Below, piece after piece: positions 3,329-48,958 of a stretch of DNA of 64,000 nt. A program made the translations under genes and the position numbers. Origin of the DNA: Escherichia coli. GTDB lineage: Bacteria; Pseudomonadota; Gammaproteobacteria; Enterobacterales; Enterobacteriaceae. The stretch is taken from the NCBI RefSeq assembly GCF_003334255.1, contig NZ_QOWU01000010.1. One strand, 5' to 3'. The notes beneath the pieces are model-generated. The model worked only from the letters and a program-made list of their open reading frames with translations, did no database searches and was not told the origin of the DNA. Each line of letters starts with the position of its first letter. Within the stretch, counting starts at the first letter, position 1.

Positions 3329-3454
3329 TTACTTGTGTTGTACCGAAGCACTCTGTTCAGGTGGCTGATAGTTGTCAATGTGACTCGCCACGCCAAGAAG
3401 AATGACTGAAACGACAAGAACGATCCAACCTGTTAATTCAATAAGACGATTCAT
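3329..3454 (-). CDS. blr: Blr, small membrane protein (41 aa)
   Basis: Internal Met of the 66-aa ORF gives MNRLIELTGWIVLVVSVILLGVASHIDNYQPPEQSASVQHK (41 aa), matching Blr from memory. Confidence 0.75.
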   Translation of the reverse strand: MNRLIELTGWIVLVVSVILLGVASHIDNYQPPEQSASVQHK

Positions 3455-3696
3455 TACAGCCCACATCTCTCTTGATTGATCCATTAACTTCAGGGGGTAA
3501 ATGTTACTTAGCAATAATAGCTCCAGCAAGATTTTTACTGAGGTTTTTGCGATATTTAGCTTTTGTCGTTGGAAAATTCGCTATTTTTTTGACTTAAGTT
3601 AAACAACATCCCTTATTGCTGGCAGGTTATTAAACTGTTGAGCGTGGGTAAAGGATAGTGTCAAATAGCCATCATACTTCAATGAGAGGCAATGAC

Positions 3697-4737
3697 ATGA
3701 GCGACAACATCCGTGTTGGGTTGATTGGGTATGGTTATGCGAGCAAAACCTTCCATGCGCCCCTGATTGCGGGCACGCCCGGGCTGGAACTGGCGGTAAT
3801 CTCCAGCAGTGATGAAACAAAAGTAAAAGCCGACTGGCCAACGGTTACGGTTGTCTCTGAGCCGAAGCATCTGTTTAACGATCCCAACATAGACCTGATT
3901 GTCATTCCTACACCCAACGATACCCATTTCCCGTTAGCCAAAGCGGCGCTTGAGGCGGGTAAACATGTGGTCGTTGATAAACCCTTTACCGTGACACTGT
4001 CACAAGCGCGAGAGCTGGATGCGCTGGCAAAAAGCCTGGGGCGTGTGCTGTCTGTATTCCATAACCGTCGCTGGGATAGCGATTTCTTGACGCTAAAAGG
4101 TTTACTCGCGGAAGGCGTGCTGGGTGAAGTTGCTTACTTTGAGTCTCATTTTGACCGCTTCCGTCCGCAGGTGCGCGATCGTTGGCGTGAACAGGGCGGC
4201 CCAGGCAGCGGTATCTGGTACGATTTAGCACCACATCTTCTTGATCAGGCCATTACGCTTTTTGGTTTACCGGTCAGCATGACGGTAGATTTGGCACAGT
4301 TACGGCCCGGAGCGCAGTCGACCGATTATTTCCACGCCATCTTGTCCTATCCACAGCGGCGAGTCATTTTACACGGTACCATGCTGGCAGCCGCTGAGTC
4401 AGCACGGTATATCGTGCATGGATCCCTAGGCAGTTATGTGAAATATGGCCTCGATCCACAGGAAGAACGTCTGAAAAATGGCGAGCGTCTACCGCAGGAA
4501 GACTGGGGCTACGATATGCGTGATGGCGTACTTACCCGCGTGGAAGGTGAGGAACGTGTCGAAGAAACGCTGTTGACGGTGCCTGGGAATTATCCGGCTT
4601 ACTATGCGGCTATTCGTGATGCGTTAAATGGCGATGGTGAAAATCCGGTTCCGGCAAGCCAGGCAATCCAGGTAATGGAGTTGATTGAGCTGGGCATCGA
4701 ATCCGCCAAACATCGCGCGACTTTGTGCCTTGCATGA
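3697..4737 (+). CDS. ydgJ: YdgJ, Gfo/Idh/MocA-family NAD(P)-dependent oxidoreductase (346 aa)
   Basis: Start at ATG 3697 (MSDNIRVGLIGYGYASKTFHAPLIAG..., Rossmann GxGxxG near N-terminus); ORF track start 3658 is probably an upstream in-frame extension. Confidence 0.88.
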   Translation: MSDNIRVGLIGYGYASKTFHAPLIAGTPGLELAVISSSDETKVKADWPTVTVVSEPKHLFNDPNIDLIVIPTPNDTHFPLAKAALEAGKHVVVDKPFTVTLSQARELDALAKSLGRVLSVFHNRRWDSDFLTLKGLLAEGVLGEVAYFESHFDRFRPQVRDRWREQGGPGSGIWYDLAPHLLDQAITLFGLPVSMTVDLAQLRPGAQSTDYFHAILSYPQRRVILHGTMLAAAESARYIVHGSLGSYVKYGLDPQEERLKNGERLPQEDWGYDMRDGVLTRVEGEERVEETLLTVPGNYPAYYAAIRDALNGDGENPVPASQAIQVMELIELGIESAKHRATLCLA

Positions 4738-33964: not shown

Positions 33965-34091
33965 TTTTATCATTTAGTGTTTTTTGCTGTTTCATAATGT
34001 TTCAGGCTGTGCATTATGTTTTTGATTATCAACAGATTTGTGATTTTCCTTGTTCCAGCTTGTTTCACGTTGTAGCCCTTTGTGCAACGAT

Positions 34092-34115
34092 CGGTGTAGT
34101 CACTGGTGTAGTCAC
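34092..34115 (+). repeat. Tandem 10-bp repeat GGTGTAGTCA x2 (candidate integrase arm-type site) upstream of int
   Basis: CGGTGTAGTCACTGGTGTAGTCAC 25 bp upstream of the int start; a near-identical copy lies at 48725-48747 near the other island end. Confidence 0.5.
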
Positions 34116-34139
34116 TTTTTCGTAAAGAGGGGGTAAAAC

Positions 34140-35369
34140 GTGAGCAGAGCAATGAACAAACTGAGCGATACCTTGCTAAGGAAACTTCATGGTAAGCCAG
34201 CGGAGAAAAACACGTTTTATAGTGATGGCGGAAACCTGAGCGTGAAATATTTAACATCAGGGAAATTGACCTGGTATTTCACATACAGGGCCGGAACGGG
34301 AAGGGAGACACGACCCGAACGCATTAAGCTGGGAAGTTATCCTGATCTGAGCCTGAAAGCAGCCAGGGAAAAAGCCGCACAGTGTCGCACATGGCTGGCT
34401 GAGGGGAAAAATCCACGTCATGAGATGAATTACACCGTACAGGAAGCGTTAAAGCCCGTAACGGTTGGCGATGCGCTCACCTACTGGCTTGAGTATTACG
34501 TAAAGGAAAACCGCGTGGATTATATCGCCCTGAAAAGGCGACTTAATAATCACGTAATACAGCAGATTGGTGCTATGCCGCTGGATAAATGCGAGCTACG
34601 GCACTGGCTGGCCTGTTTTGACCAGGTGGCAAAGCGAACGCCTGTTACTGCCGGATTCGTGCTACAGGCGTGCAAACAGGCGCTTAAGTTCTGCCGTAGG
34701 CGGCGCTATGCAATCAGCAACGTTCTGGACGATCTGAACGTGGCGGACGTTGGGAAAAAACCGGATATAAGCGAACGTGTCTTAAGTAACAAAGAACTTG
34801 GCGAATTATTGCAGGCACTGGACAAAAAAATATTTTCCCCTTACTACGTCGCGTTAATCCGCCTCCTGATTGTCTTCGGAGCCAGGACGGTAGAACTGAG
34901 GCTATCGGAGATCGGGGAGTGGGATTTTACGGAAATGCTATGGACCGTTCCGAAGGAGCACAGCAAAACGAAGGTCGCAATATTCCGGCCCATACCGGAA
35001 GCGATCCTGCCGTTCGTCACGCAGCTGGTGGAGCAGAACAGGCACACGGGCTTATTGCTGGGGGAAGTGAAACAGGAGGCCAGCGTATCGCAGTATGGAA
35101 GATTAGCGCACAGGAGGCTTAATCATCCTCACTGGTCACTGCATGACATCCGGCGCACCTTTACAACCATGCTGAACGATTTAGGCGTTGATCCGCATGT
35201 CGTGGAGCAGCTTACAGGTCATCAGATGCCAGGAATGCAGCGAGTTTATAATCATTCCCGTTATCTGGATGCTAAACGCAATGCGCTGGATATGTGGATG
35301 GAGCGGTTAGGGATACTGGCGGGAACACATGAAAACGTAACCACGCTACCAGTAGCCAGAAGAAAATAA
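34140..35369 (+). CDS. int: Tyrosine integrase, P4-type (DUF4102 arm-binding N-terminal domain plus catalytic domain ending ...HDIRRTF...Y), 409 aa from GTG
   Basis: N-terminal KLSDTLLRKLHGKPAEKNTFYSDGGNLSVKYLTSGKLTWYF resembles the P4 integrase family N-terminus; C-terminal HxxRRT and downstream Tyr; GTG at 34140 has a GAGGGGG RBS (alternative ATG at 34152). Confidence 0.88.
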   Translation: MSRAMNKLSDTLLRKLHGKPAEKNTFYSDGGNLSVKYLTSGKLTWYFTYRAGTGRETRPERIKLGSYPDLSLKAAREKAAQCRTWLAEGKNPRHEMNYTVQEALKPVTVGDALTYWLEYYVKENRVDYIALKRRLNNHVIQQIGAMPLDKCELRHWLACFDQVAKRTPVTAGFVLQACKQALKFCRRRRYAISNVLDDLNVADVGKKPDISERVLSNKELGELLQALDKKIFSPYYVALIRLLIVFGARTVELRLSEIGEWDFTEMLWTVPKEHSKTKVAIFRPIPEAILPFVTQLVEQNRHTGLLLGEVKQEASVSQYGRLAHRRLNHPHWSLHDIRRTFTTMLNDLGVDPHVVEQLTGHQMPGMQRVYNHSRYLDAKRNALDMWMERLGILAGTHENVTTLPVARRK

Positions 35370-35743
35370 TTTTTTTCGTGTTTTTTCAGTATGCGCATAC
35401 TGGATATGCGAACAGATACAACATGCAACAATGAGCAACAATGCGGAACAACTACGAACAAGAGACGAAAAAGTGTACGGATTTATAAGTAGCTGATTTT
35501 TAATGTGTTACTGGTTTTTTATACACTAGCGAATCACTCTTTAAATAGCGAGAAAAAAGGCATGAAACAATATTTTATGCCTTTGTATTAACATGAATTT
35601 AAATGATTTTATCCTGATTATTCCTGTTTCTGTAAACCATACGACCTCAACATTTGCCAACTCTGAATCATCCTGACACAATCAGACACATCCCAACGCA
35701 ATAGAACACGAAATAACTCTTTAAGAAACGAAAGGGGGCAATA

Positions 35744-35932
35744 GTGTTAAGCACTGATCGGTTTATACGTGAAAAAGAATGCGAAAAGCTAACAGGCCTT
35801 AGCCGCTCATGCCGCTACCGCCTGGAAAAGGCCGGACAATTCCCATCACGTCGTAAACTTGGCGGTCGTTCCGTTGGCTGGTCTTTATCCGAGGTTCTGG
35901 CCTGGAAGGATAGCTGCAAGGCAGTTCATTAA
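35744..35932 (+). CDS. alpA: AlpA-family transcriptional regulator / excisionase-like HTH protein (62 aa, GTG start)
   Basis: LSTDRFIREKECEKLTGLSRSCRYRLEKAGQFPSRRKLGGRSVGWSLSEVLAWKDS fits the AlpA/Vis-type small HTH family; RBS AGGGGG 5 nt upstream. Confidence 0.75.
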   Translation: MLSTDRFIREKECEKLTGLSRSCRYRLEKAGQFPSRRKLGGRSVGWSLSEVLAWKDSCKAVH

Positions 35933-36432
35933 TCACGCTGGCGGCACACAGCCGCCACACATCAATCATCTGAACACAGAGCTATAACCATGAAGATTGA
36001 ATATACGCCAGAACGTGGGCGGGGATTCGTTCGCCCTGGTGAGACTGGAAAACCACAAAATTGGGGTTTTTCAGGCATAAAAAAAGCGGCCCCGAAATGG
36101 AGCCGCCTTTCTGAACAGATAACACGCTGCGCCGTTTGTGTGTGTGATCCCAAACATAAGCACGGGGATGATAGCCGCTATCAGGCTGGTGGGCAATGCA
36201 ATCAGTCTGGTTCAGTTCGTTGCCATACCTGCAATGAGCGCTTTTCCCTGTACTCTTTAAGGAATTGCTCAAGGGCAAAAGCACATGGCGCGAATCTTTC
36301 TGATTCATGCTCTATCTTTCTGCGCCGTCTTTTCCGTGCCGGTGATAATGTTTTGGTCAATTCTTTATCGGTCATTGTGTTGTCCTGCATAGCAATGCGC
36401 CGTAATACCTCACACCACGGCGCTGATAGTGA

Positions 36433-36738
36433 TTATTCTGATTCTTTGGCCTTGCGGCGCTGTAGTTCTTCACGAGCGATGGCGATAAGTTGCCCGAGTT
36501 CTTCCGTAGCTTTAATACCAATTTTTTCCACTTGCGCCAATGCATCGAGAGAAGAAATCAGAGGATTTTCACTGCTTCCTTCTGCCTGGCGGCGGGCGAT
36601 CTCCCCGCGCATGGCGGTTACTATGAATCCGGCGTTGCTTTCGCCGTCCAGTTTTACGGATTCCATGCCATCAAAAGCATCATGTGGGATACGAATTGAA
36701 ATCTGTTTTGATTTGTCGTTGATAGTGTTTTTTGCCAT
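36433..36738 (-). CDS. Hypothetical protein (101 aa), leftward-transcribed; candidate island regulator
   Basis: Start at Met 14 of the ORF, with AGGAGA RBS 7 nt upstream; the only clearly leftward gene in the island, divergent from the replication operon; function unknown. Confidence 0.5.
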   Translation of the reverse strand: MAKNTINDKSKQISIRIPHDAFDGMESVKLDGESNAGFIVTAMRGEIARRQAEGSSENPLISSLDALAQVEKIGIKATEELGQLIAIAREELQRRKAKESE

Positions 36739-36925
36739 GTGCATTCTCCTAAACAAAAGATGTGATTCAGTATACACAAAAAAGAATCACAAAAAACACT
36801 TGACCTGTGATTCAGTTGAATTTAATTTAAATCACACCTCAGTAAGAGGATGTAAACGACAACGCCCCGAACTGTTTGCGGCAGTAGCGGGGCGTCTAAC
36901 CAAACCGTTAACAGGAGTAACGATT

Positions 36926-37123
36926 ATGGCTGGAACACAGCATACCCCACGTCTGGCGCACACACAAACTGCCTTTGTGTGGCGTTTTCTGGCACTAAGT
37001 GCCGGAGAATCTCAAATCATCCACGTAACCGCCTGGACGGAACGCGAAGCGCGTAGCCGTTGCCCGTCCGGTTGTGTTGCTGTATTCGCCGCCCGTATTC
37101 GTCAGGGGGTGTGCCATGCCTGA
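36926..37123 (+). CDS. Small protein (65 aa), first gene of rightward operon; possibly Icd-like (function uncertain)
   Basis: ATG at 36926 preceded by AGGAG RBS (ACAGGAGTAACGATTATG); C-terminal part of the spurious long ORF 35990-37123; stop overlaps next gene start. Confidence 0.5.
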   Translation: MAGTQHTPRLAHTQTAFVWRFLALSAGESQIIHVTAWTEREARSRCPSGCVAVFAARIRQGVCHA

Positions 37124-37436
37124 CATGACCAATTACCAGTACCTGATTAATCCGCATTTTAACTGTGAGCATGATATTGCTAAAAAGGTTTATTCCGCTG
37201 CGGATGGGGCTACTGACAATATATCAATGGCTGTTTCGTCAATTGGTAGCCTGATGTGGTATGCGTCAGAAAATAAGGAATATGACGAAAAGGCCATGCG
37301 CATTGATATGGGTAATATTGGTTTGTTACTGGCAATGCTTGGACATTTTGATATTTCGTTACGGTGCACCATTGAAAATGCCACAGATGCATTAAATGCT
37401 ATAAAGAAAGCGAATACTGATTCAAATCGGGGATAA
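37116..37436 (+). CDS. Hypothetical protein (106 aa)
   Basis: ATG at 37116 overlapping the upstream stop (translational coupling); no recognisable motif. Confidence 0.5.
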   Translation: MPDMTNYQYLINPHFNCEHDIAKKVYSAADGATDNISMAVSSIGSLMWYASENKEYDEKAMRIDMGNIGLLLAMLGHFDISLRCTIENATDALNAIKKANTDSNRG

Positions 37437-37442
37437 ATAATC

Positions 37443-37742
37443 ATGAGAACGTATTTATCTGGCTTTACTGCCAGCGGTTATGCACACCCCAAAATTATCC
37501 CCGGCGCTATTTATCTGGATAAGAACGGTAACAGAGTAACGGTAAAAGAACTGATGTTTGACCGTGTGTATTTTATTCGTGATGGCTATTCATTTCATAG
37601 TTCGCTGAACGTGGAGATCTTTATTAGCAGATTCCGGCGGGAAATCCCGCTTTCCAGAAATAACCATGTGTCATGTATGGATGTTGATAAAAAACTACAG
37701 GAACTGAAAAACATGATTGCCGCGTGGAGAGAGCAGAAATGA
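37443..37742 (+). CDS. Hypothetical protein (99 aa)
   Basis: ORF directly upstream of and overlapping the primase gene start; no recognisable motif. Confidence 0.5.
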   Translation: MRTYLSGFTASGYAHPKIIPGAIYLDKNGNRVTVKELMFDRVYFIRDGYSFHSSLNVEIFISRFRREIPLSRNNHVSCMDVDKKLQELKNMIAAWREQK

Positions 37743-39556
37743 AAAAAGCGCCAAATTTAAAACACCAGCCGCGTGACAAAATGACGGAAGTCATCATTTT
37801 TGCGGGTAGTGATGCGTGGGCACATGCGAAGCAGTGGCAGGAACAGGACGGGCGACTGGCTGGCGATAACGTGCCACCTGTCTGGCTTGGAGAGCAACAA
37901 CTTGCCGAACTGGACAACCTGCAAATCGTACCGGACGGACGCTATCGCGTGCGTCTCTACCAGGCGGGGTTATTGCGTCCGGGGCTTGTTAATACCATCG
38001 GGCAGAAACTGGCAGCGGCAGGTGTCAGGGATGCTGATTATTACCCTGAAGGAATGCACAGCCAGAAACGGGAGAACTGGCGCGAATATCTGGAACGTGA
38101 GCGGGGAGAGCTGGCGGAAAAGAAAAAGGTAGTTGAACTGCCTGTAAAGAAAAAAGAGCGGGTAAAAGACGATAACGCTTCATCACTGGCGCTTAACCAG
38201 ATGGGAGCAAGTCAACGCGGCGAAGTTCTCCTGGCACATTATGGCGGTGAACTGGCGATTCATGCTGACTCTGACACTGTTCACTATTACAACGGCGTTG
38301 TATGGGAGCCAGTACAGGATAAAGAATTACAGCGAGCTATGGCGCAGATTTTCATTGATGCGGAGATCAGCTATTCGCAGAACGCCATTAAATCGGCGGT
38401 CGATACCATGAAGTTAAGTTTGCCTGTAATGGGGAATACAGCCCGTAACCTGATTGGATTCAGTAACGGTGTTTTTGATACCCGGACAGGCGATTTTCGG
38501 GAGCATAACAAAAACGACTGGTTGTTAATTGCCAGTGAATTACCTTTCAGCCCACCAGCAGAGGGGGAAACGCTGGCAACACATGCGCCGAATTTCTGGA
38601 AGTGGTTACGCCGTTCGGTGGCTGAGAATGACCGCAAGGCGGATCGCGTACTGGCTGCATTATTCATGGTGCTGGCGAACCGGTACGACTGGCAGTTATT
38701 CATTGAGGTAACAGGTCCAGGGGGAAGTGGTAAAAGCGTGATGGCGGAGATTTGCACCATGCTGGCGGGTAAGGCCAACACGGTATCGGCAAGCATGAAG
38801 GCGCTGGAAGATGCCAGGGAACGCGCGTTAGTGGTTGGCTTTTCGCTGATTATCATGCCGGATATGACCCGTTACGCTGGTGATGGCGCAGGAATTAAGG
38901 CCATTACAGGCGGTGACAAGGTGGCAATCGACCCGAAGCATAAAGCCCCCTACTCAACACGCATTCAGGCGGTAGTGTTGGCGGTGAACAATAACGCCAT
39001 GTCATTCAGTGACCGCAGCGGGGGGATTTCACGTCGTCGGGTGATATTCAATTTTTCGGAGGTTGTACCGGAAAACGAACGCGACCCCATGCTGGCAGAA
39101 AAAATAGAAGGAGAGCTGGCGGTTGTGATTCGCCACCTGCTTACTCGTTTTTCTGACCAGGACGCAGCTAAACGCCTGCTGTATGAGCAGCAGAAATCAG
39201 AAGAAGCTCTGGTGATAAAACGCGAGGGCGATTCGCTGGTGGACTTCTGCGGCTATCTCATGTCGTCGGTAATGTGTGATGGTCTGTTAGTGGGTAATGC
39301 CGAAATTATTCCGTTCAGTCCGCGCAGGTATCTTTATCACGCCTATCTGGCATATATGAGGGCACACGGATTCGGTAAACCTGTAACACTGACGCGCTTC
39401 GGTAAAGATATGCCGGGGGCAATGGCGGAATATGGCAGGGAGTATATGAAACGGAAAACGAAGCACGGTTTGCGTTCAAACGTGACACTGACGGAGGAAT
39501 CAGAAGACTGGATGCCATCATGTGTATCGGTCACTAATGACGATAGCAAAAATTAA
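37739..39556 (+). CDS. Primase / replication initiator with P4/D5-type NTPase domain (605 aa)
   Basis: Walker A VTGPGGSGKS and downstream Walker B-like hydrophobic-acidic stretch in the C-terminal half (P4-family primase C-terminal domain architecture); GGAGAG RBS before ATG 37739; followed by an iteron array. Confidence 0.75.
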   Translation: MKKAPNLKHQPRDKMTEVIIFAGSDAWAHAKQWQEQDGRLAGDNVPPVWLGEQQLAELDNLQIVPDGRYRVRLYQAGLLRPGLVNTIGQKLAAAGVRDADYYPEGMHSQKRENWREYLERERGELAEKKKVVELPVKKKERVKDDNASSLALNQMGASQRGEVLLAHYGGELAIHADSDTVHYYNGVVWEPVQDKELQRAMAQIFIDAEISYSQNAIKSAVDTMKLSLPVMGNTARNLIGFSNGVFDTRTGDFREHNKNDWLLIASELPFSPPAEGETLATHAPNFWKWLRRSVAENDRKADRVLAALFMVLANRYDWQLFIEVTGPGGSGKSVMAEICTMLAGKANTVSASMKALEDARERALVVGFSLIIMPDMTRYAGDGAGIKAITGGDKVAIDPKHKAPYSTRIQAVVLAVNNNAMSFSDRSGGISRRRVIFNFSEVVPENERDPMLAEKIEGELAVVIRHLLTRFSDQDAAKRLLYEQQKSEEALVIKREGDSLVDFCGYLMSSVMCDGLLVGNAEIIPFSPRRYLYHAYLAYMRAHGFGKPVTLTRFGKDMPGAMAEYGREYMKRKTKHGLRSNVTLTEESEDWMPSCVSVTNDDSKN

Positions 39557-39569
39557 ACTTATGGAATAA

Positions 39570-39792
39570 CTGTTCACCACTGTTCACCCTGTCATAAATA
39601 TCTTTTGTATCAGTATGTTATAGGGTGAACAGTTATTTATGAACTGTTCACCAAACTATTCACTGTTCACCTTTTTGATTGTTTATTGAGCTTCAAGGGT
39701 GAACAGTGGTGAATAGTTGGTGAATAGTTTTTGTGAAACTGTTCACCCCTTAACATTATGAATTAAAAGATAAAATATCAAAAGGTGAACAG
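39570..39792. repeat. Iteron array (at least 8 copies of CTGTTCACC / GGTGAACAG in both orientations): candidate island replication origin
   Basis: Copies at 39570, 39580, 39624(inv), 39644, 39663, 39698(inv), 39739, 39784(inv) plus GGTGAATAG variants at 39708 and 39718, in AT-rich DNA just after the primase gene. Confidence 0.65.
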
Positions 39793-39843
39793 GTGAAGGG
39801 TTAAAACGCAAAAATTTTAATTTACTGCTGTGAGATAAAGCCT

Positions 39844-40089
39844 ATGACAGCGAAGCACACAAAAAAATCACAATCGCACGCCCTTGATTTGACGGAACAC
39901 TGGTTAAGGGTGTCGATAAAAATCATCGACCGCAACGCCGGGGAAGGATATGCGAAAGCACATCCCGAACTGATTAGCTCATTCATGACAACGGCAGCTG
40001 CAAACTTTGCCACGCTGACAGAACGGGAGATTGCCGAAGCGGAACAGGTGACAACCATCAACGTTAAAACCGGAGAGCAGACAGCATGA
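39844..40089 (+). CDS. Hypothetical protein (81 aa)
   Basis: ORF immediately upstream of and overlapping the ssb start (ATGA overlap); weak RBS. Confidence 0.4.
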   Translation: MTAKHTKKSQSHALDLTEHWLRVSIKIIDRNAGEGYAKAHPELISSFMTTAAANFATLTEREIAEAEQVTTINVKTGEQTA

Positions 40090-40496
40090 CAGCACAGATA
40101 GCAGCTTACGGGCGGCTGGTGGACGACCCGCAGGTAAAACAGACCAGTAAGGGCACACCGATGACGCTGGCGCGTATGGCGGTATCGTTGCCATGTAGTC
40201 AGGCGCAGGATGGGCAGGCGACGTTATGGCTATCGGTCATCGCATTTGGTAAGCAGGCCGACTTCCTGGCTAAACATCAAAAAGGCGACGTTGCCAGCGT
40301 ATCCGGCACGATGCAGGTCAGCCAGTGGACCGGACAGAACGGGGAAACGCGGCAGGGTTATCAGGTTATTGCAGACAGCGTAATCAGTGCCCGTGCGGCA
40401 CGTCCTGGCGGGAACAGACGCAAAACCACAGGCACACAGGGTAATCAGCCACCAGCGGGAGGCGATGACCCTTACGGTGACGGTATTCCGTTCTGA
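40086..40496 (+). CDS. ssb: Single-stranded DNA-binding protein (136 aa)
   Basis: OB-fold-like N-terminal region, Gly/Pro/Gln-rich linker and acidic C-terminal tail ...DDPYGDGIPF, the hallmark SSB protein-interaction tail. Confidence 0.75.
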   Translation: MTAQIAAYGRLVDDPQVKQTSKGTPMTLARMAVSLPCSQAQDGQATLWLSVIAFGKQADFLAKHQKGDVASVSGTMQVSQWTGQNGETRQGYQVIADSVISARAARPGGNRRKTTGTQGNQPPAGGDDPYGDGIPF

Positions 40497-40506
40497 GGGG
40501 GTGGCG

Positions 40507-40779
40507 ATGGTACATGACCGCATAGCGGAAGAACTCGAGGCGAAAGGCTTTTACCGGAGGGCGGCGGCGCGATGGGGTGAAGTCATGCTGCTGGTGGAGA
40601 CAGACAAGGAACGGCATCAGGTTACGATGCGACGGCTGGAATGTTCCAGGAAGGCACAGAAGCCACCGGAGCCGCCGGATAACTTCGGAGACCTGAGAAA
40701 GGCAGTAGATCGCACTTATGCTGAAATGGGTATAGATGGTGTAAGCGATGAAATATGGCGTAATTACCCAGACAGCTAA
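40507..40779 (+). CDS. PerC-family-like small transcriptional activator (90 aa)
   Basis: MVHDRIAEELEAKGFYRRAAARWGEVM... resembles the conserved PerC motif (LEAxGxxRRAAxRW) as I remember it; GAGGGGG RBS. Confidence 0.5.
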   Translation: MVHDRIAEELEAKGFYRRAAARWGEVMLLVETDKERHQVTMRRLECSRKAQKPPEPPDNFGDLRKAVDRTYAEMGIDGVSDEIWRNYPDS

Positions 40780-40784
40780 TCAAC

Positions 40785-40808
40785 AGCCGGAGAAATCCGG
40801 CTTTTTTT
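40785..40808 (+). terminator. Intrinsic terminator
   Basis: AGCCGGAGAAATCCGGCT followed by TTTTTTT. Confidence 0.65.
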
Positions 40809-40903
40809 GCACCAGTTGAAACGGTATGGCGCATTACCGGGTTTTCGTCACGGTCAGGCATAGTTACTATCTGAAACAAACAGACACAACAGAGGAAAAA
40901 ACA

Positions 40904-41128
40904 ATGCCGATGAAATTTGATGAGATATTAAAACAGCGTGATAAATACCATGCTGACAACATGGAGACGATGAGCATCAATGATTACCGCGCATTCCTGG
41001 AGACGGGCGCACTGATTGAAAAGGATCAGCATGGTTTTGTGAGATGTGCTCTGTCCGGTGAAATGCTGGCGGTAAATCCTGAACAGATAGATGCATTGAT
41101 AGAATTTCTGAAAGGGATCAGGGACTGA
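40904..41128 (+). CDS. Hypothetical protein (74 aa)
   Basis: Start at internal Met with GAGGAAAAAACA-ATG RBS; followed by a terminator almost identical to the one at 40785. Confidence 0.45.
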   Translation: MPMKFDEILKQRDKYHADNMETMSINDYRAFLETGALIEKDQHGFVRCALSGEMLAVNPEQIDALIEFLKGIRD

Positions 41129-41138
41129 GCACGCATAC

Positions 41139-41160
41139 AGCCGGAGCAATCCGGCTTTTT
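41139..41160 (+). terminator. Intrinsic terminator (near-duplicate of 40785-40808)
   Basis: AGCCGGAGCAATCCGGCT followed by TTTTT. Confidence 0.65.
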
Positions 41161-41420
41161 GTCATTTTTTGTAAATTATTTGTTCGTGGTTGTTCCACGT
41201 TGTTCACTGACAGGATCGGCATATTTTACCCGAACTGAATCATGAGTATTCTCGCCCGTGGTGCCAGGACGCTGGGGCCACTTTCCCGCCTGTTAATGTG
41301 CTCGCCAATATTCATTACCAGGCGGGAAAACGATCGGTGCGATTGCTGATTTCCTTATGAAAAACGGTTGAGTTTTTGCCGCGTCCTGGAGTTCCTTACT
41401 TAACCCCAGGACTTTTTTTT

Positions 41421-42578
41421 ATGCCGAGAATAATCGAATTACGCCAGCAGAAAACCGCCATTAAAAATCAGATGCGCGACATGCTGGAGAACGCGGAAAA
41501 AGAAAACCGCAGCCTTAACGATGCAGAGGGCGCAAAATTTGACGAATTACGCGCTAAAGCTGAATCCCTCGATAAAGACATTTCCCGCCTTGAAGCCATT
41601 GCAGACGAAGAGCGCAGCAAGCCAGGTAAAAGCAGCCAGACCACTGACCCGGCAGAACTCCGCAACTACATCCTGACAGGTGAAACCCGCGCATTAAGTA
41701 CAGGCGTTCCCGCTGATGGTGGTTATACCGTTATCCCCGAACTGAACACCGAAATCATGCGAATGCTGACGGATGAATCCACCATGCGCCGCATCTGTAC
41801 CGTGAAGAAAATCAGCAGCAACGAGTTTAAGCAGCTTGTTTCCGCTGGCGGTGCGACCGTTAACCACGGTGAAGAGGGTAAGACACGCGAACAGACCAGC
41901 ACCCCGCAGATTAACGAGGTGAGCATTAAGCTGTATCCGGTCTATGCGTACCCGCGCACCACACAGGAAATCGTGGATTTTTCCGATGTGGACATCCTTT
42001 CATGGCTGACGGGTGAGATTGGCGACACCTTCACGGAAACCGAAGAAAGCGATCTGGTTGTGGGCGACGGTGACAAAAAAGCAAAAGGTTTTTTATCCGT
42101 ACCCCGTGCAGAGAAGAACGACAAAGAGCGTGATTTTGGTACGTTGCAGGTAATTAAACCTTCCGAATCTCTGGCGTGGACATCTGCGGACCCGCTGATC
42201 GACCTGAAATTTGCATTACGTAAAAAATACCGCAAAAACGCGGTCTGGGTGGTTAACTCCACGACGGCGGCAAAACTTCAGAAGGTGAAGAACGCGAACG
42301 GTGATTACATCTGGCGCGACCGTTTACAGGCGGGTGATCCTGATACGTTGCTGGGCCTTCCGGTCGAATATCTGGAGTTTATGCCTGATAACGTTATTGC
42401 CCTGGGTGACTTCAAACGCGGTTACTACATTGTTGATCACGAAACAGGTGTTCGCACCAGACCGGACAACCTCACAGAGCCGGGCTTCATCAAAATTTTC
42501 ACGCAGAAATATTTAGGCGGTGGCGTGGTGGATTCGAACGCGATCAAGATTCTGGAACTGCCACAGGACGACGATTAA
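41421..42578 (+). CDS. Major capsid protein, HK97 fold, with N-terminal coiled-coil scaffolding (delta) domain (385 aa from ATG 41421)
   Basis: N-terminal coiled-coil region (IELRQQKTAIKNQMRDMLENAEKENRSLNDAEGAKFDELRAKAESLDKDISRLEAIADEE) followed by a region typical of HK97-family capsid proteins; ORF track start 41376 is a TTG extension; strong terminator follows. Confidence 0.85.
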   Translation: MPRIIELRQQKTAIKNQMRDMLENAEKENRSLNDAEGAKFDELRAKAESLDKDISRLEAIADEERSKPGKSSQTTDPAELRNYILTGETRALSTGVPADGGYTVIPELNTEIMRMLTDESTMRRICTVKKISSNEFKQLVSAGGATVNHGEEGKTREQTSTPQINEVSIKLYPVYAYPRTTQEIVDFSDVDILSWLTGEIGDTFTETEESDLVVGDGDKKAKGFLSVPRAEKNDKERDFGTLQVIKPSESLAWTSADPLIDLKFALRKKYRKNAVWVVNSTTAAKLQKVKNANGDYIWRDRLQAGDPDTLLGLPVEYLEFMPDNVIALGDFKRGYYIVDHETGVRTRPDNLTEPGFIKIFTQKYLGGGVVDSNAIKILELPQDDD

Positions 42579-42590
42579 CAGCATACAGAA

Positions 42591-42620
42591 GGGGCTTAAA
42601 AGCCCCTTTAGTGTTTTATG
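42591..42620 (+). terminator. Intrinsic terminator after major capsid gene
   Basis: GGGGCTT-AA-AAGCCCC hairpin followed by a T-rich tract. Confidence 0.65.
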
Positions 42621-42632
42621 GGTGAAAAAATT

Positions 42633-43190
42633 ATGAAGAGTATGGAAATCCGGTCATCGGAAATCACCACCAGCGCCAGCAACACGCTTACAGGCTACGT
42701 TGTTCGCTGGGATAAGCTTTCAGAGCTGCTATGGGGGGAGTTTTACGAAAAATTCCAGCGGGGAGCGTTTACTGAATGGCTTGCGGCGGGTAATGACGTT
42801 CGCGGCCTGTATGAGCATGACCACAGCATGTTGCTGGGGCGTACCCGTTCCGGCACGCTGAAACTGGAAGAGGACGAAACAGGGTTACGCTTTGAACTGA
42901 CCCCACCGGATACCAGTACAGGGCGCGACGTTATCGAACTGGTTAAGCGTGGGGACATCTCGGGGATGAGCTTTGGCTTTCGCTCCCGTAAGGATGTATG
43001 GGATACCACAACAGATCCATGCGTGCGCACCGTGCTGGTGGCGGAACTGTACGAAATTACCGTTACATCGGTACCGGCTTACCCCGATTCCGGCGTGGAG
43101 CTGGCCCGCCGTTCCCTGTATGAGCAGCACCCCGAAAAAATGCCGCGTGCGGATAATCGCCGCTGGTGGGTGGATTTAGCGGGGGTGTGA
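42633..43190 (+). CDS. Prohead maturation protease, HK97 family (S78-like), about 186 aa
   Basis: Sequence typical of HK97-type prohead proteases (GYVVRWDKLS..., YEHDHSMLLGRTRSGTL, GDISGMSFGF); start ambiguous among ATG 42618/42633/42642. Confidence 0.8.
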   Translation: MKSMEIRSSEITTSASNTLTGYVVRWDKLSELLWGEFYEKFQRGAFTEWLAAGNDVRGLYEHDHSMLLGRTRSGTLKLEEDETGLRFELTPPDTSTGRDVIELVKRGDISGMSFGFRSRKDVWDTTTDPCVRTVLVAELYEITVTSVPAYPDSGVELARRSLYEQHPEKMPRADNRRWWVDLAGV

Positions 43191-43191
43191 T

Positions 43192-44403
43192 ATGTGGCTT
43201 TTCAGAAGAAAAAAAGAGCAGCGCAGCATGACGCTTGATGAATTTATGGCGCTGGCTGGCACATCGAACACGGGGGCGGGTGAGTACGTATCATCGGGGA
43301 CAGCGGAATCACTGCCCGCCGTCATGAACGCCGTGACGGTCATCTCTGAGGCGGTGGCTACCATGCCGTGTTACCTGTACCTGGTACGCAATGAGAAGGG
43401 GAAGGAGGCCCGCGAGTGGCTTGATTCTCATCCGGTCGATCACATCCTCAACGAGCGCCCGAACGCGTGGCAGACTCCCTACCAGTTTAAGCGAATGATG
43501 ATCCGCCACTGCCTGTTAAACGGTAATGCTTATGCGGTGATTCAGTGGGGGCGTGATGGTTTTCCGGTGGCTTTACATCCTTACCCGCCGCAGTCGGTGA
43601 ACGTGGAGCAGACAGGCGAACACAACTGGCGCTACTGCATCACTGACGCCTACACCGGAAACACCCGCAACTATTTACCGTGGGAGGTTCTCCACCTTCG
43701 TTACTCCACGGATGACGGTTTTATGGGGCGCTCACCTGTAACCATCTGCCGCGAATCGCTGGGGCTTGGGCTGGCCCAACAACGCCACGGCGCGAGCGTG
43801 ATGCGTGATGGCATGATGGCGGCAGGGGTTATCACGTCAGGCGAATGGCTGGACGGCGTGAAGGGCAAACAGGCATTAGCCGCACTGGAACGCTACAAAG
43901 GGGCCAGAAACGCCGGAAAAACGCCCATCCTTGAAGGGGGTATGAGCTATCAGCAGCTGGGCATGAGTAATCAGGATGCTGAATGGCTGGCCTCCCGTCG
44001 CTTCACCATTGAAGACATCGCCCGAATGTTCAACGTCTCGCCGATTTTTCTGCAGGAATACAGCAACAGCACCTACAGCAATTTCAGCGAGGCAAGCCGC
44101 GCATTTCTCACCATGACAATGCGCCCGTGGCTGGCGAACTTTGAGCAGCAGATAAAAAACGCCCTGCTGGTGGCCTCGCCTGTACCTGGTATCCGGTATC
44201 AGGTGGAGTTTGACAGCGCGGACCTGTTACGGGCCACACCTGGCGAACGCTTTGCCACCTATGAACGCGGCATCAAATCCGGCGTTATGTGCCCGAACGA
44301 AGCCCGCGAACGTGAAGGGCTGTCCCCGCGTGATGGTGGTGATGAGTTCAGCCAGGCATGGAAACAGGAAGTAAAAATCAGCGAGGGAGAAAAACCGGAA
44401 TGA
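43192..44403 (+). CDS. Portal protein, HK97 family (403 aa)
   Basis: Size, position and conserved portal-like core (…LLNGNAYAVIQWGRDG…, …ILEGGMSYQQLGMSNQDAEWL…); immediately follows the protease with 1-nt spacing. Confidence 0.8.
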   Translation: MWLFRRKKEQRSMTLDEFMALAGTSNTGAGEYVSSGTAESLPAVMNAVTVISEAVATMPCYLYLVRNEKGKEAREWLDSHPVDHILNERPNAWQTPYQFKRMMIRHCLLNGNAYAVIQWGRDGFPVALHPYPPQSVNVEQTGEHNWRYCITDAYTGNTRNYLPWEVLHLRYSTDDGFMGRSPVTICRESLGLGLAQQRHGASVMRDGMMAAGVITSGEWLDGVKGKQALAALERYKGARNAGKTPILEGGMSYQQLGMSNQDAEWLASRRFTIEDIARMFNVSPIFLQEYSNSTYSNFSEASRAFLTMTMRPWLANFEQQIKNALLVASPVPGIRYQVEFDSADLLRATPGERFATYERGIKSGVMCPNEAREREGLSPRDGGDEFSQAWKQEVKISEGEKPE

Positions 44404-44738
44404 ACATAGGGCGACTGCGTGACAGGGTAACGATTCAGACCCTGAAACAGACCAGGGATATAACCGGCGAAATACTCGAAACGTGGGAGGACGGTCACAC
44501 ACTCTGGGCAAGCGTGAACATGATCAGCAGCAAGGAGGCCATTTCATCGGGTGCAGAGCTGGCGATTGGTACCGTAAGGATCTGGATACGGTACCGGAAG
44601 GACATCAATGCCACCAGCCGGATAAAGGTCAGTACGGGGCCGCTGGCGGGGCGTGTACTGAATATCATCGGGCAGCCGCTGCCGGATGCCGCCAGGACAC
44701 GCCTTGAAATTCTTTGTCGTGAGGGCGCGGAAAAATGA
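44400..44738 (+). CDS. Head closure / head-tail adaptor protein (112 aa)
   Basis: MNIGRLRDRVTIQTLKQTRD... resembles the head-tail joining family; ATGA overlap with portal stop; GAGGGAGA RBS. Confidence 0.7.
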   Translation: MNIGRLRDRVTIQTLKQTRDITGEILETWEDGHTLWASVNMISSKEAISSGAELAIGTVRIWIRYRKDINATSRIKVSTGPLAGRVLNIIGQPLPDAARTRLEILCREGAEK

Positions 44739-45031
44739 CAGAAGAACTTATCACCCTGGAAGAAGTGAAACTCCATTGCCGCATCGATGGCGACGAGGAA
44801 GACCAGTTAATCAGCGGATACATCGCCGCATCGCTTGAGGCGTGCCAGATACACATAGGCAGGCGCTTTGATGACGGGCTGGAGTTCACGCCAGCCATAA
44901 AGATTGGCTGCATGATGTTTATCGCTCACCTGTATGAAAATCGCCAGATTGTCGCGGATAACGCAAAAACACGCGTACCCATGACGATTGGTGCACTCTG
45001 GACGGCTTACCGTGATGTGGGGGTGTACTGA
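44735..45031 (+). CDS. gp6-like head-tail connector protein (98 aa)
   Basis: MTEELITLEEVKLHCRIDGDEEDQLISGYIAASLEACQIHIG... resembles the gp6-like connector family N-terminus. Confidence 0.7.
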   Translation: MTEELITLEEVKLHCRIDGDEEDQLISGYIAASLEACQIHIGRRFDDGLEFTPAIKIGCMMFIAHLYENRQIVADNAKTRVPMTIGALWTAYRDVGVY

Positions 45032-45471
45032 TGCCGTGGCAACCATTAAGACGATGCACAGAACCAGGCTGTAACAGGCGCGTGAAGTCCGGCAAGTGTG
45101 AGGAGCACAGGCGGGCGGCATGGCGTGCAGAGGATGCCAGACGAGGACACCGCCGCGCGCGTGGGTACTCCAGACAGTGGGACAAATACCGCGCCATGTA
45201 TCTGAGTAAAAACCCGTTATGCGTGCGATGCCTTGAGAAGGGGATATATACGCCCGCCGTGGTGGTGGATCACATTATCCCGATTAATGGCGGTGATGAT
45301 GTTCTCTTCTGGCCCGAATGGAACCATCAGCCATTGTGCCAGGCGTGCCATAACCAGAAAACGAAATGGCTTGATCCGGCAACAAAAAGCAAGCGTGCCG
45401 CAGGTGGATTTCGTGAAGAGGAAGAACGGGCCGCTAACCGCAATAACTGGATGTATGACGCTGATGAATGA
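45031..45471 (+). CDS. HNH endonuclease (packaging-associated), 146 aa
   Basis: Cys pairs plus VVDHIIPINGGDD...NHQPLCQACHNQK (HNH motif); located immediately upstream of TerS as in HK97-like cos packaging modules. Confidence 0.85.
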   Translation: MPWQPLRRCTEPGCNRRVKSGKCEEHRRAAWRAEDARRGHRRARGYSRQWDKYRAMYLSKNPLCVRCLEKGIYTPAVVVDHIIPINGGDDVLFWPEWNHQPLCQACHNQKTKWLDPATKSKRAAGGFREEEERAANRNNWMYDADE

Positions 45472-45759
45472 GCGGGAACAAAACCGCCTTATCCGTGGAC
45501 TTATAAGGCAGCGTGACGCATGGAAGACACAGGAAACAGGGCATAAAGATAAAGCGTCAGGACGCGCAGAACGCATCACAGCGAAGCGATTAACCGACCG
45601 TGACCGCGAGGTTATGGAATGTTTCCGCAATCGCTGATGAGGCTGTATGACGGGGTGGGGGGCGTTTTCAGGACAAACCCGACCCCGCCGGGCACCGACC
45701 GCCTCCTCAAATTTTTATGCACGGGAATTTTTTGAAAAATAATCTGACGAAAAATAAGC

Positions 45760-46116
45760 ATGGCAAGACCACCGAAAGCCCCCGCCTACCTGGATGACAT
45801 CGCCGTGAAGCAGTGGCGGGAAAAATCGCGGCAGCTTGCGGAACGGGGAGACCTGACCCCCGCCGACTGGAGCAATCTGGAACTGTATTGTGTCAACTAC
45901 TCCATTTACCGGAAAGCCGTCGCAGACCTTGCGGCGCGCGGGTTCAGCATTGTTAACAGTCAGGGCGGCGAGAGCAGAAACCCCGCATTAAGCGCGAAAT
46001 CAGACGCTGAAAGGGTGATGATAAAAATGGCCTCCTTGCTCGGTTTTGACCCGATAAGCCGCCGTAAAAACCCACCGGAAACAGAAGAAGAGGACGAGCT
46101 TGACCGCCTGGAATAA
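45760..46116 (+). CDS. Terminase small subunit, P27 family (118 aa)
   Basis: Resembles P27-type TerS (AVKQWREKSRQLAERGDLTPADWSNLELYCVNYSIYRKA); overlaps TerL start. Confidence 0.8.
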   Translation: MARPPKAPAYLDDIAVKQWREKSRQLAERGDLTPADWSNLELYCVNYSIYRKAVADLAARGFSIVNSQGGESRNPALSAKSDAERVMIKMASLLGFDPISRRKNPPETEEEDELDRLE

Positions 46117-47761
46117 GTACGCAGAAGACGTAAAAACGGGCAAAATTCAGGCCTGTAAACGGTTAAAACAGGCCGTTAAACGGTACTTTTCGGACCTTAA
46201 AAGCCCCCTTTACACGTTCGATCGTGAGGTTGTGGATCGGTTTATTGCCTTTTCCAGGGTGTGCCCGCACGTAAAAGGGCCGATGCGTGGCAGACCCATT
46301 GAGCTGGAGCCGTGGCAGCAGTTCGCCTTTGCGTGCATCCTCGGCTTTAAGGTTAAGGCCACCGGACGGCGCAAATATACGAGCGCCTTTATCGAAGTGC
46401 CGCGCAAAAATGCTAAATCAACGACCGCCGCGATTCTGGCTAACTGGTTTCTGATTATGGAGAACGGTCAGCAGGATATTTACACCGCAGCGGTGAGCCG
46501 TGACCAGGCGAGGATCGTATTTGATGATGCGCGTCAGATGTGCATTTTATCCCGACCGTTACGCAGGCGGGTGAATATTCAGGCGCATAAGGTGATACAC
46601 CCGAAAACCAACAGCCTGTTAAAGCCGCTGGCAGCAAAAGCGGCAACTATCGAGGGCACAAACCCCAGTCTTTCTATCGTGGACGAATACCACCTACACC
46701 CCGACAACGGCGTATATTCTGCGCTTGAACTGGGGATGGGGGCACGTCCCGAAGGGCTGTTATTTGCCATTACCACATCGGGAAGTAACGTCGTTTCAGC
46801 CTGTAAGCAGCATTATGATTATTGCTGCCAGATCCTGGACGGCGAAGAGGTTAACGAATCGCTTTTTGTGCTGATTTACGAACTGGACGACGAAAACGAG
46901 GTTGATGATCCGGAGATGTGGATAAAGGCGAACCCTAATATCGATGTTTCCGTGGATCGTGAAAAACTGGCCTCAACCATTCAGAAAGCGCGGGGTATTC
47001 CGTCGCAATGGGTGGAGATGATGACAAAGCGATTTAATATCTGGTGTCAGGGGACTACCCCGTGGATGGGTAATGGTGCATGGGCTGAGTGTGCCGGAAC
47101 GTTCACGGAGGAAGATTTACACGGTCAGGAGTGTTACGCGGGGCTGGACTTATCATCAACCAGCGATATTTCCAGCGTGTGCTATGCCTTTCCGGTCGGT
47201 AAAACCATTATGATGATTTCCCGTCATTATCTGCCGGAGTTCCAGCTACAGAACCCCGCCAATAAAAACCGCGCTGTCTATCGTCAGTGGGCTAAAGCAG
47301 GCTGGATACGCACAACGCCTGGCGACTGCATTGATTACGACCGGATCAGAGATGACATCATGCAGGACGCGGAGAAATTTAATATCAGGCTGGTGGGCTT
47401 TGATACGTGGAACGCCACGCATCTCAGAACGCAATTACAGGGGGCAGGTTTTGAGGTGGAGCCGTTCCCGCAAACCTACCTCAGATTCAGTCCGGCGGCG
47501 AAATCGTTCGAAGTTTTTGTTAACCGCAGGGTGATTGTGCATCGTGGCGATCCGGTGTTGTCCTGGTCGATGAGTAACGTCGTGATGCAGAGTGACGCGA
47601 ACGCCAATATCAAGCCGAACAAGAAAAAATCACCGAACAAGATAGACCCGAGCGTGGCGGCGCTGATGGCGTTTGGTACATTCCAGGCAGAGCATGAGGA
47701 TTTTGCTTTTGATATAAGCGACAGCCACCGCCAGAAACTGGAAGAATTTAGCGGGGTGTAA
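46100..47761 (+). CDS. Terminase large subunit (553 aa; apparent TTG start)
   Basis: ATPase and nuclease domains in typical TerL arrangement; no in-frame ATG/GTG near the 5' end, TTG at 46100 preceded by GAGGA. Confidence 0.85.
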   Translation: MTAWNKYAEDVKTGKIQACKRLKQAVKRYFSDLKSPLYTFDREVVDRFIAFSRVCPHVKGPMRGRPIELEPWQQFAFACILGFKVKATGRRKYTSAFIEVPRKNAKSTTAAILANWFLIMENGQQDIYTAAVSRDQARIVFDDARQMCILSRPLRRRVNIQAHKVIHPKTNSLLKPLAAKAATIEGTNPSLSIVDEYHLHPDNGVYSALELGMGARPEGLLFAITTSGSNVVSACKQHYDYCCQILDGEEVNESLFVLIYELDDENEVDDPEMWIKANPNIDVSVDREKLASTIQKARGIPSQWVEMMTKRFNIWCQGTTPWMGNGAWAECAGTFTEEDLHGQECYAGLDLSSTSDISSVCYAFPVGKTIMMISRHYLPEFQLQNPANKNRAVYRQWAKAGWIRTTPGDCIDYDRIRDDIMQDAEKFNIRLVGFDTWNATHLRTQLQGAGFEVEPFPQTYLRFSPAAKSFEVFVNRRVIVHRGDPVLSWSMSNVVMQSDANANIKPNKKKSPNKIDPSVAALMAFGTFQAEHEDFAFDISDSHRQKLEEFSGV

Positions 47762-47774
47762 TGAGGTCAGCAGC

Positions 47775-48056
47775 ATGACAGAAGCCGAAATAACGGGATT
47801 AATCCGCCGCGTTGCCGGAATCAGCCAGCAGGCTGACGAACAGGCCACGCAGCCGGACAGCGTGACAGCCGAAAACTATGCGCGTGTTGTTGCTGAGGTG
47901 ATGCGCCGTGATGGTATAGAACTTAATGGCGTGGATATGCGCAACATACGAACCAGAGTTCTTGAGTTGCTGGCCTACCGTCGCCGCGTGGAGATGTATC
48001 GGGAGAAGGAGAAAATAACGTACCACTGGAAGAAGCCGGAGCGGTTGCGGCGGTAA
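47775..48056 (+). CDS. Hypothetical protein (93 aa), last gene of island
   Basis: ATG 47775 with GAGG RBS 8 nt upstream; no recognisable motif. Confidence 0.5.
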   Translation: MTEAEITGLIRRVAGISQQADEQATQPDSVTAENYARVVAEVMRRDGIELNGVDMRNIRTRVLELLAYRRRVEMYREKEKITYHWKKPERLRR

Positions 48057-48349
48057 CTGGTTGATATTCCCGACGGACCAAAAATGGGTGGCTACATCCC
48101 TCGCTTCTGAGGACTGTTAACAAGCTGCCTGAAAGACAGTCACAAACTACGAAATTTTCGCAGTTTAATTAATGATCAGCTTAATCGCTAACCCGCTGAT
48201 ATTTTCGGAAACCTCAATTTGAGGAAGTCGGCGCGGTAACTCGCTGAACTTTAAGCAAAGTGCAAAATTGCGCTTGCTGAATAATCATTATGATTACGCA
48301 GATGATTAAGGAATGACCGAAGGCGGAAATTCGCCTGTGGTTAATGGGG

Positions 48350-48462
48350 GAGTTGCAGATCTGCAACTCGACCATGAAACTACGGAAACTACCCGTAGTT
48401 TGGGTAGTAAGAGTAACACCCAGATTTTGGGTCTTACTCGTGATACCCAAATTTGGGGTATC
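48350..48462. repeat. Cluster of perfect and near-perfect palindromes in the island right arm
   Basis: Perfect 20-bp palindrome GAGTTGCAGATCTGCAACTC (48350-48369); AAACTACGG/CCGTAGTTT stem (48376-48400); nested AGTAAGA...ACCCA...TGGGT...TCTTACT (48406-48439); GATACCCAAATTTGGGGTATC (48442-48462). Confidence 0.6.
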
Positions 48463-48724
48463 AGTGGCAACCATAACGACTTTCGTTACGGTTGATGCTT
48501 TTACCCCATTGGGGGAAAGGTATTACGATAATCATAACACCTACCGAACAGGTAAAGCCCACCAGCCTGATTAACGTTTAACCGGAAAAAAATTCCGGTA
48601 GGTGGGGATCCCCATATCGACATTAACGCCCCTCATGAATTGGTGCGCTTCCCCCTGGAAAGATGATCCGCCTGTATATTTCTTGTGTCTATTTGTTCCA
48701 CGTTGTTTCATACAGTGCACCGAA

Positions 48725-48747
48725 CGGTGTAGTCACTGGTGTAGTCA
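48725..48747 (+). repeat. Tandem 10-bp repeat GGTGTAGTCA x2 (second copy of candidate arm-type site)
   Basis: CGGTGTAGTCACTGGTGTAGTCA, same orientation as 34092-34115; preceded by TTGTTCCACGTTGTT, which recurs at 41190. Confidence 0.5.
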
Positions 48748-48821
48748 TTTTGCGATTTTTGGCACTTTTTGCGGTGAAAATTATTTAATTAAATCAACGT
48801 GTTATGTGAAATAAGTTATAT

Positions 48822-48830
48822 ATAACAGCA
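48822..48830. repeat. Right att core copy (ATAACAGCA) at island/tqsA junction (attR)
   Basis: Identical to 33956-33964; followed by contiguous tqsA 5' coding sequence. Confidence 0.7.
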
Positions 48831-48958
48831 ATAAATAATGCGAGAATAAACGGCACGATGATCTCGGCGGCAAAACGGATACCGCAGAGAATAATGACCA
48901 GCATTCCCAACATAATGACGATTTTTAGGCCATTGAGCGTGATGATCGGCTTTGCCAT
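48824..48958 (-). pseudogene. tqsA: tqsA (ydgG) 5' fragment: first 45 codons with native start and RBS, separated from the rest by the island
   Basis: Minus-strand ATG at 48958 encodes [45 protein letters not shown], which joins in frame to the fragment at 33058-33963 (shared AV codons) when the island is deleted. Confidence 0.88.

Follow-up and report, generated by a model that had tools for sequence, protein, structure and literature searches.

The terminase gene pair and its island

The window (the whole 64,000-nt stretch of Escherichia coli DNA analysed here, contig NZ_QOWU01000010.1) carries an hnh-terS-terL cluster at the end of an island inserted in tqsA, and the genes for the small and large terminase subunits overlap at their junction. 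The features of the island and of the junction are as follows.

34043-48751, plus strand: capsid-forming PICI (cf-PICI), about 14.7 kb long, with an imperfect 76-nt direct repeat at either end (34043-34118 and 48676-48751)
45760-46116, plus strand: terS, small terminase subunit, 118 aa, 13.3 kDa (RefSeq CDS WP_000113645.1)
46100-47761, plus strand: terL, large terminase subunit of the HK97 type, 553 aa, 62.7 kDa (RefSeq WP_032270481.1)
46055-46057, plus strand: TAA in the terL frame, the closest stop upstream of the TTG, closing the frame 15 codons ahead of it
46090-46094, plus strand: GAGGA, Shine-Dalgarno-like, formed from Glu/Asp codons of the terS tail
46100-46102, plus strand: TTG initiation codon of terL, the RefSeq CDS start, conserved as TTG in relatives
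46100-46116, plus strand: terS/terL overlap of 17 nt, read as LDRLE and stop in the terS frame and as (fM)TAWNK in the terL frame
46108-46109, plus strand: junction of a 10-nt indel, from the alignment of terS/terL junctions; its placement is ambiguous by a few nucleotides

The earlier note had placed the terL start at a TTG preceded by GAGGA and overlapping the end of terS, and a reading of the sequence bears out each of these elements: the TTG is the first start-type codon in the terL frame past the stop at 46055, GAGGA lies 5 nt ahead of it, and the overlap takes in the last 17 nt of terS up to its TAA stop (46114-46116). An in-frame scan of the 14 codons between the 46055 stop and the TTG found no ATG, GTG, TTG, CTG, ATT, ATA or ATC. 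The terL frame is +1 relative to that of terS and is open from 46058, with the first two bases of the TTG serving as the second and third bases of terS Leu114 (CTT, 46099-46101) and its third base as the first base of Asp115, within an acidic protein tail that reads ...EEEDELDRLE. The start of terL therefore lies inside the 3' end of terS on the same strand, which is the layout of a translationally coupled overlapping pair.

This arrangement is an ordinary one, and the TTG start is already present in the public RefSeq annotation of WP_032270481.1. The window is identical to the chromosome of E. coli G1/2 (NZ_CP060083.1) across the 801 bases compared (45700-46500), and the PGAP start in that chromosome and in all relatives inspected is the equivalent of TTG 46100. 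The homologous start and its 17-nt overlap are also annotated in the O157 Sakai 'prophage Sp7', in four further E. coli strains and in the induced particle vB_KppS-Ant, and 517 of the 5426 complete E. coli genomes contain the terS/terL junction. The cf-PICI preprints consulted (including bioRxiv 10.1101/2022.09.08.507074) make no mention of the terL start codon, of N-terminal sequencing of TerL, of mass spectrometry or of ribosome profiling.

Both proteins fall into known terminase families. TerS belongs to the P27 (Terminase_4) family (Pfam PF05119, E=1.5e-23) and scores 60.1 bits against the NCBIfam model TIGR01558, whose cut-off is 45.6. TerL matches PHROG 9, 'terminase large subunit' (E=1.8e-179), and contains the Pfam domains TerL_ATPase (PF03354, residues 71-242, E=5.2e-25) and TerL_nuclease (PF20441, residues 253-530, E=2.6e-49). 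Its Walker A-like motif (RKNxKS/T; R102, K103, N104, K106, S107 and T108) and Walker B-like motif (hhhhDE; D195 and E196) are invariant among 25 diverse homologues and align with RKNGKT and ILDE of HK97, so that both domains and both motifs place the protein among the HK97-type large terminases. HK97 TerL itself (6Z6D) shares the family over residues 46-540 (E=1.9e-42), with HK97 residue 15 corresponding to residue 46 of the window protein; it lacks approximately the first 31 residues of the window TerL, and overall similarity is low. As in the window, the HNH endonuclease gene of HK97, a cos-type system, adjoins terS. A search of NCBIfam with TerL returned no matching model, and hence no independent view of the N-terminus.

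By size and gene order the element is assigned to the cf-PICIs, and the terminase genes appear to be those of a capsid-forming PICI of the EcCIEDL933/Sakai Sp7 type, not of a full prophage. The RefSeq gene order runs int, HTH, icd-like, primase, ssb, perC, capsid, protease, portal, head closure, connector, HNH, terS and terL, and no tail or lysis genes are annotated among the RefSeq features between the att repeats. These repeats are 76% identical and share the core ACGGTGTAGTCACTGGTGTAGTCA, and what is left of the split tqsA is a C-terminal pseudogene adjoining pntB and, near 48815-48958, an N-terminal stub. Proteobacterial cf-PICIs have this gene organisation, the prototype being EcCIEDL933 from O157, and islands of that type, 97% identical, undergo helper-dependent induction and transfer with helper tails, as with phage HK106 (bioRxiv 10.1101/2022.09.08.507074). 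EcCIEDL933/Sakai Sp7 (ECs_1597/ECs_1598) has the same TTG, 17-nt overlap and hnh-terS-terL cluster at the island end as the window; the two junctions share 97% nucleotide identity and differ by point changes only, the window island being that in tqsA of the commensal G1/2.

Several further features of the island were observed. A conserved 93-aa ORF at 47775-48056, the sole ORF behind terL, is the last gene before attR and is matched from end to end by PHROG 1561 (E=2.9e-56); at the corresponding place the 16.5-kb relative vB_KppS-Ant (L002) has a 2.3-kb gene annotated 'tail length tape measure protein' (2036-4333), so related islands carry different cargo behind terL. Between terS and the small ORF that follows hnh lies an intergenic stretch of G-runs and C-runs at 45640-45745, GGGGTGGGGGGCG...CCCGACCCCGCCGGGCACCGACCGCCTCCTC. 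The two ends of the linear vB_KppS-Ant record fall near 45674 and 45741 of the window, about 66 nt being unmatched, and this stretch is a likely candidate for the island's cos region. Two 96% identical copies of a hairpin followed by a T-run, ACAGCCGGAG(A/C)AATCCGGCTTTTT, lie 354 nt apart at 40783-40806 and 41137-41160, just upstream of the capsid gene, and resemble a pair of intrinsic terminators placed where the early region meets the packaging operon.

Conservation of the TTG and its ribosome-binding context

The comparison of start codons covered 86 related loci (80 from species-representative genomes and six close relatives), which comprise 85 distinct sequences: a TTG class (class B) of 30 and 55 ATG sequences. 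The codon aligned to 46100 is a start codon in every locus, being TTG in 30/30 class-B sequences and ATG in the 55 others. The TTG class spans about 17 genera, namely Escherichia, Klebsiella, Citrobacter, Enterobacter, Kosakonia, Pluralibacter, Intestinirhabdus, Serratia, Pectobacterium, Erwinia, Pantoea, Winslowiella, Rosenbergiella, Yersinia, Hafnia, Frischella and Gilliamella, and the ATG sequences come from Proteus, Xenorhabdus, Photorhabdus and the Pasteurellaceae. All class-B relatives keep the overlap of terS and terL, at 17 nt or, in some, 14 nt.

The TTG class and the Proteus/Xenorhabdus class encode the same terS tail, ...EEEDELDRL. At the Leu position of its 'DE-L-DR' segment, however, the codon is CTT (or ATT) in all class-B sequences, whereas in the class with an ATGA overlap it is TTA, CTA or CTG and never NTT (24/24 distinct tails), even though neighbouring synonymous sites in the tail (GAG/GAA, CGC/CGT and CTG/TTG/CTA) vary freely. 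As NTT occurs only in the TTG class, this synonymous site of terS is fixed only where it serves as the middle base of the terL TTG.

Eight class-B relatives have an extra in-frame ATG 2-6 codons upstream of the TTG, and in these the TTG could be an internal Leu codon. Upstream in-frame ATGs in L024, L038, L058, L061, L063 and L070 (around positions 2483-2500) derive from GAT/GAG codons of the acidic terS tail, and gene callers select such codons, giving N-termini such as MRKTRLTAY and MSLTAW; islands of this kind may have two competing terL starts. A different layout was seen in Testudinibacter and Pasteurella testudinis (L074 and L079, around positions 2490-2503), where the terS TAA is followed at once by the terL ATG in the same frame (...GGG GCA TAA ATG), so that one stop codon alone parts the two genes.

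The predicted anti-Shine-Dalgarno (anti-SD) duplex upstream of the TTG in the window has an energy of -5.8 kcal/mol at 5-nt spacing, and each of the 22 distinct contexts of the TTG class (22/22) has a GGA core ahead of the TTG at a distance of 5 or 8 nt, 8 nt in most relatives. Across the TTG class the mean duplex energy is -7.1 kcal/mol, compared with -3.6 kcal/mol in the ATG-class relatives with the ATGA overlap, where the corresponding GAGGA stands 15 nt from the ATG. Local mRNA structure is predicted to be weak (-9.8 kcal/mol over 81 nt), with GAGGA only partly paired. Taken together, the duplex energies, the conserved GGA core and the weak local structure make de novo initiation at the TTG plausible, and coupling of terL to termination of terS 14-17 nt downstream is possible as well.

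Overlapping, translationally coupled terminase genes are familiar from other phages, for example lambda Nu1/A, where the gene for the small subunit terminates within the beginning of that for the large one, although the proteins belong to different families. A stricter version of such coupling would have the TTG used essentially only by ribosomes fresh from terS termination, in a termination-reinitiation that ties TerL stoichiometrically to TerS. In every class-B relative the start precedes the terS stop by 14-17 nt, which is compatible with this, as is the sister lineage with its classic ATGA coupling overlap and weak SD (the mean of -3.6 kcal/mol). We nevertheless consider strict dependence on terS termination unlikely, given that a well-placed SD is retained in every one of the 22 contexts and that the weak structure around a partly paired GAGGA presents no obvious block to a 30S subunit.

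The arrangement favoured here is a separate TerL initiated at the TTG by either of two routes. In the first, 30S subunits would bind de novo at the internal SD within the terS tail; in the second, ribosomes that finish terS a few codons downstream would keep the site unfolded and may re-initiate there, as in translational coupling.

How much TerL this would yield relative to TerS is a further matter. UUG starts about 3% of E. coli genes, and E. coli reporters started with AUG, GUG or UUG cover a range of 10-100% of the AUG level (bioRxiv 10.1101/063800), which makes a lowered TerL output from the TTG a reasonable expectation. That the rare start codon and coupling hold TerL below TerS, as the earlier note proposed, is plausible. 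The ATG of terS at 45760, on the other hand, has almost no anti-SD complementarity (-0.7 kcal/mol), and its leader (window 45740-45762) is A-rich: gacgaaaaataagc. Since terS is without an SD and the terL TTG has a predicted duplex of -5.8 kcal/mol, the TerS:TerL ratio is not readable from sequence, and TerS may not be better translated than TerL.

The TerL N-terminus and the competing start sites

Three other start-type codons lie further into the terL frame, within or at the end of the region that the TTG would add to the protein.

46100-46282, plus strand: terL codons 1-61, a conserved N-terminal helical module ahead of the ATPase domain
46232-46234, plus strand: in-frame GTG, terL codon 45; GTG in 7/30 class-B sequences and GTA, GTC or GTT in the other 23
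46259-46261, plus strand: in-frame GTG, terL codon 54; GTG in 5/30 class-B sequences, the residue varying between L, V, Y and H
46283-46285, plus strand: first in-frame ATG, terL codon 62 (the Met of 'PMRGRP'); ATG in 5/30 class-B sequences and 5/85 overall, mostly Leu in relatives

The claim that the first 60 codons of terL contain no ATG or GTG thus fails on the two GTGs, and the companion claim, that the TTG is the only plausible start, does not stand on the window sequence alone, where these GTGs compete. It does stand once conservation is considered: because residues 1-44 are conserved, the TTG is the only sensible start.

Nearly all TerL homologues from the Enterobacterales, Orbales and Pasteurellaceae have a length of 553-558 aa, and they align over their full length, with a common N-terminus of the form M-x-x-W-x-x-Y-A...G-x-I-x-A-C...R-Y...D-L...P-x-Y-x-F-D...V-x-x-F...F-S...C-P-H-V-K-G. 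Residues 1-61 stay conserved even where overall identity falls to 67-70%, and an alignment of 25 sequences has 17 invariant positions between residues 7 and 60 (Y7, A8, G14, C19, R28, Y29, D32, P36, D41, V45, F48, F51, C55, H57, V58, K59 and G60). At the DNA level, codons 7-61 vary as a coding sequence does: mean column entropy at codon positions 1, 2 and 3 is 0.44, 0.33 and 1.16 bits in the TTG class and 0.53, 0.41 and 1.20 bits across all 85 distinct sequences. The PHROG 9 and 4914 profiles align to TerL from residue 2 onward, and an AlphaFold2 model of residues 1-90 gave pLDDT values of 83-93 with helices at 3-13, 20-34 and 42-52. The full-length alignment of homologues, the third-position entropy, the predicted structure and the poor conservation of codons 62, 45 and 54 as starts all indicate that the region upstream of the first ATG is translated as part of TerL.

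These data bear directly on the proposal that TerL begins at GTG 46232, GTG 46259 or ATG 46283 and is a protein of 55.6-57.5 kDa, the upstream 44-61 codons being untranslated or fortuitously open. The three candidates are in frame, GAGG lies just ahead of GTG45, the Pfam ATPase domain begins only at residue 71, and HK97 TerL, whose N-terminus is about 31 residues shorter and which aligns only from residue 46, indicates that a shorter enzyme is compatible with function. Against this, residues 1-44 are conserved like the remainder of the protein and with a coding-type third-position pattern, the AlphaFold2 model is confident from residue 1, the PHROG profiles extend to residue 2, the candidates are start codons in only 5-7 of the 30 class-B sequences, with codon 62 mostly Leu, and the GAGG ends 2 nt from GTG45, which is too close. 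We therefore rejected GTG45, GTG54 and ATG62 and regard an internal start as the source of TerL as very unlikely, while a minor, additional short isoform is possible.

The prfB (RF2) frameshift site consists of an SD, 3 nt and CUU UGA C, and the small and large terminase subunits of HK97 are separate proteins. A programmed +1 frameshift, in which P-site tRNA-Leu would slip from CUU to UUG at 46099-46102 and produce a 666-aa, 75.3-kDa TerS-TerL fusion instead of or besides initiation, shares with prfB an SD-like element a few nucleotides upstream of CUU (GAGGA, 4 nt, CUU) and a downstream ORF in the +1 frame, here open from 46058, but we find it scarcely credible, since the likeness is superficial: CUU is followed by GAC, an ordinary Asp codon that is neither a stop nor rare or hungry, re-pairing at UUG leaves a third-position mismatch, the GGA core stands 8 nt and not 5 nt from the TTG in most class-B sequences, which suits initiation and not a stimulator at fixed distance, the terL frame is closed just 8 codons upstream in many relatives, sister lineages have terL in another relative frame (ATGA) or straight after the terS stop with both proteins intact, and the HK97 subunits are separate. 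The fusion or frameshift that the earlier note had entertained was accordingly discarded, there being neither a slow A-site codon nor a conserved, fixed SD distance.

A start of terL at TTG 46100, behind GAGGA and overlapping terS, is strongly supported by these comparisons, and a separate TerL of 553 aa started at this codon is very probably what the gene produces.

The 10-nt indel and its implications

What separates the TTG and ATGA classes at the junction is one 10-nt indel containing the ATG, with collinear, homologous flanks on both sides. In the alignment the window reads GACCGCC----------TGGAAT where Proteus and Xenorhabdus read GACCGCCTATGAACGCATGGGA; the Proteus, Xenorhabdus and Photorhabdus relatives have an extra TATGAACGCA at 46108-46109, which provides an ATG start and an ATGA stop/start overlap. 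Where the 10 nt are absent, the end of terS, (C)TT GAC CGC CTG G, is read one base later as TTG ACC GCC TGG, giving fM-T-A-W; where they are present, terL begins ATG AAC GCA TGG, giving M-N-A-W. The islands of these three genera thus resemble that of the window in the ...EEEDELDRL tail of terS and in a homologous TerL N-terminus (MNAW... versus (M)TAW...), and differ from it in the added segment, the ATG, the 4-nt ATGA overlap, the relative frame of the two genes and the 15-nt distance of GAGGA. Two short repeats that resemble each other, ACCGCCT and AACGCAT, flank the segment, a layout that replication slippage in either direction would be expected to leave.

As to the direction, a neighbour-joining tree of 74 TerL proteins, rooted on the Pasteurellaceae and computed with no support values, placed Gilliamella and Frischella first and then the enterobacterial TTG sequences beside a monophyletic ATG clade, so that the TTG class is paraphyletic and the ATGA class monophyletic. 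The paraphyly of the TTG state suggests that it may be the older one within the group and that the Proteus/Xenorhabdus ATG may be a secondary 10-nt duplication.

From the junction, its relatives and the predicted ribosome-binding energies, we infer that TTG 46100 would be decoded as fMet and TerL made as a separate protein of the cf-PICI, with the shares of de novo initiation and coupling, and any effect on the TerS:TerL ratio, as projected parts of the same picture. The arrangement is a conserved trait of the lineage, in which the 10 nt are absent relative to the ATGA sister lineage. One could go further and see in the TTG and its 14-17-nt overlap a selected expression device of the cf-PICI terminase lineage in Enterobacterales and Orbales, made or removed by slippage across an imperfect 10-nt direct repeat (ACCGCCTATG and AACGCATGG); a change from 'TTG + close SD' to 'ATG + ATGA coupling' or back would tune the proportion of TerS to TerL that the island requires for its own cos-specific packaging. 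We put this forward tentatively, as a possible but doubtful extension; if it were true, the first five codons of TerL would be overprinted on the TerS tail.

The results open no new mechanism, and what they add is comparative: a TTG that is invariant throughout its lineage, a synonymous terS site that is frozen there, and a 10-nt indel between sister lineages. Their value is mainly one of annotation hygiene, in that they bear out the start given by RefSeq for a very widespread terminase and the place of the conserved 61-residue module in the protein, which is relevant to the expression of cf-PICI TerL for biochemical and structural work. A clean genetic handle is also available in T46101C, a synonymous change in terS (CTT to CTC) that converts the terL TTG into TCG. 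The comparison also provides a small example of overprinting and of start-codon turnover in overlapping genes.
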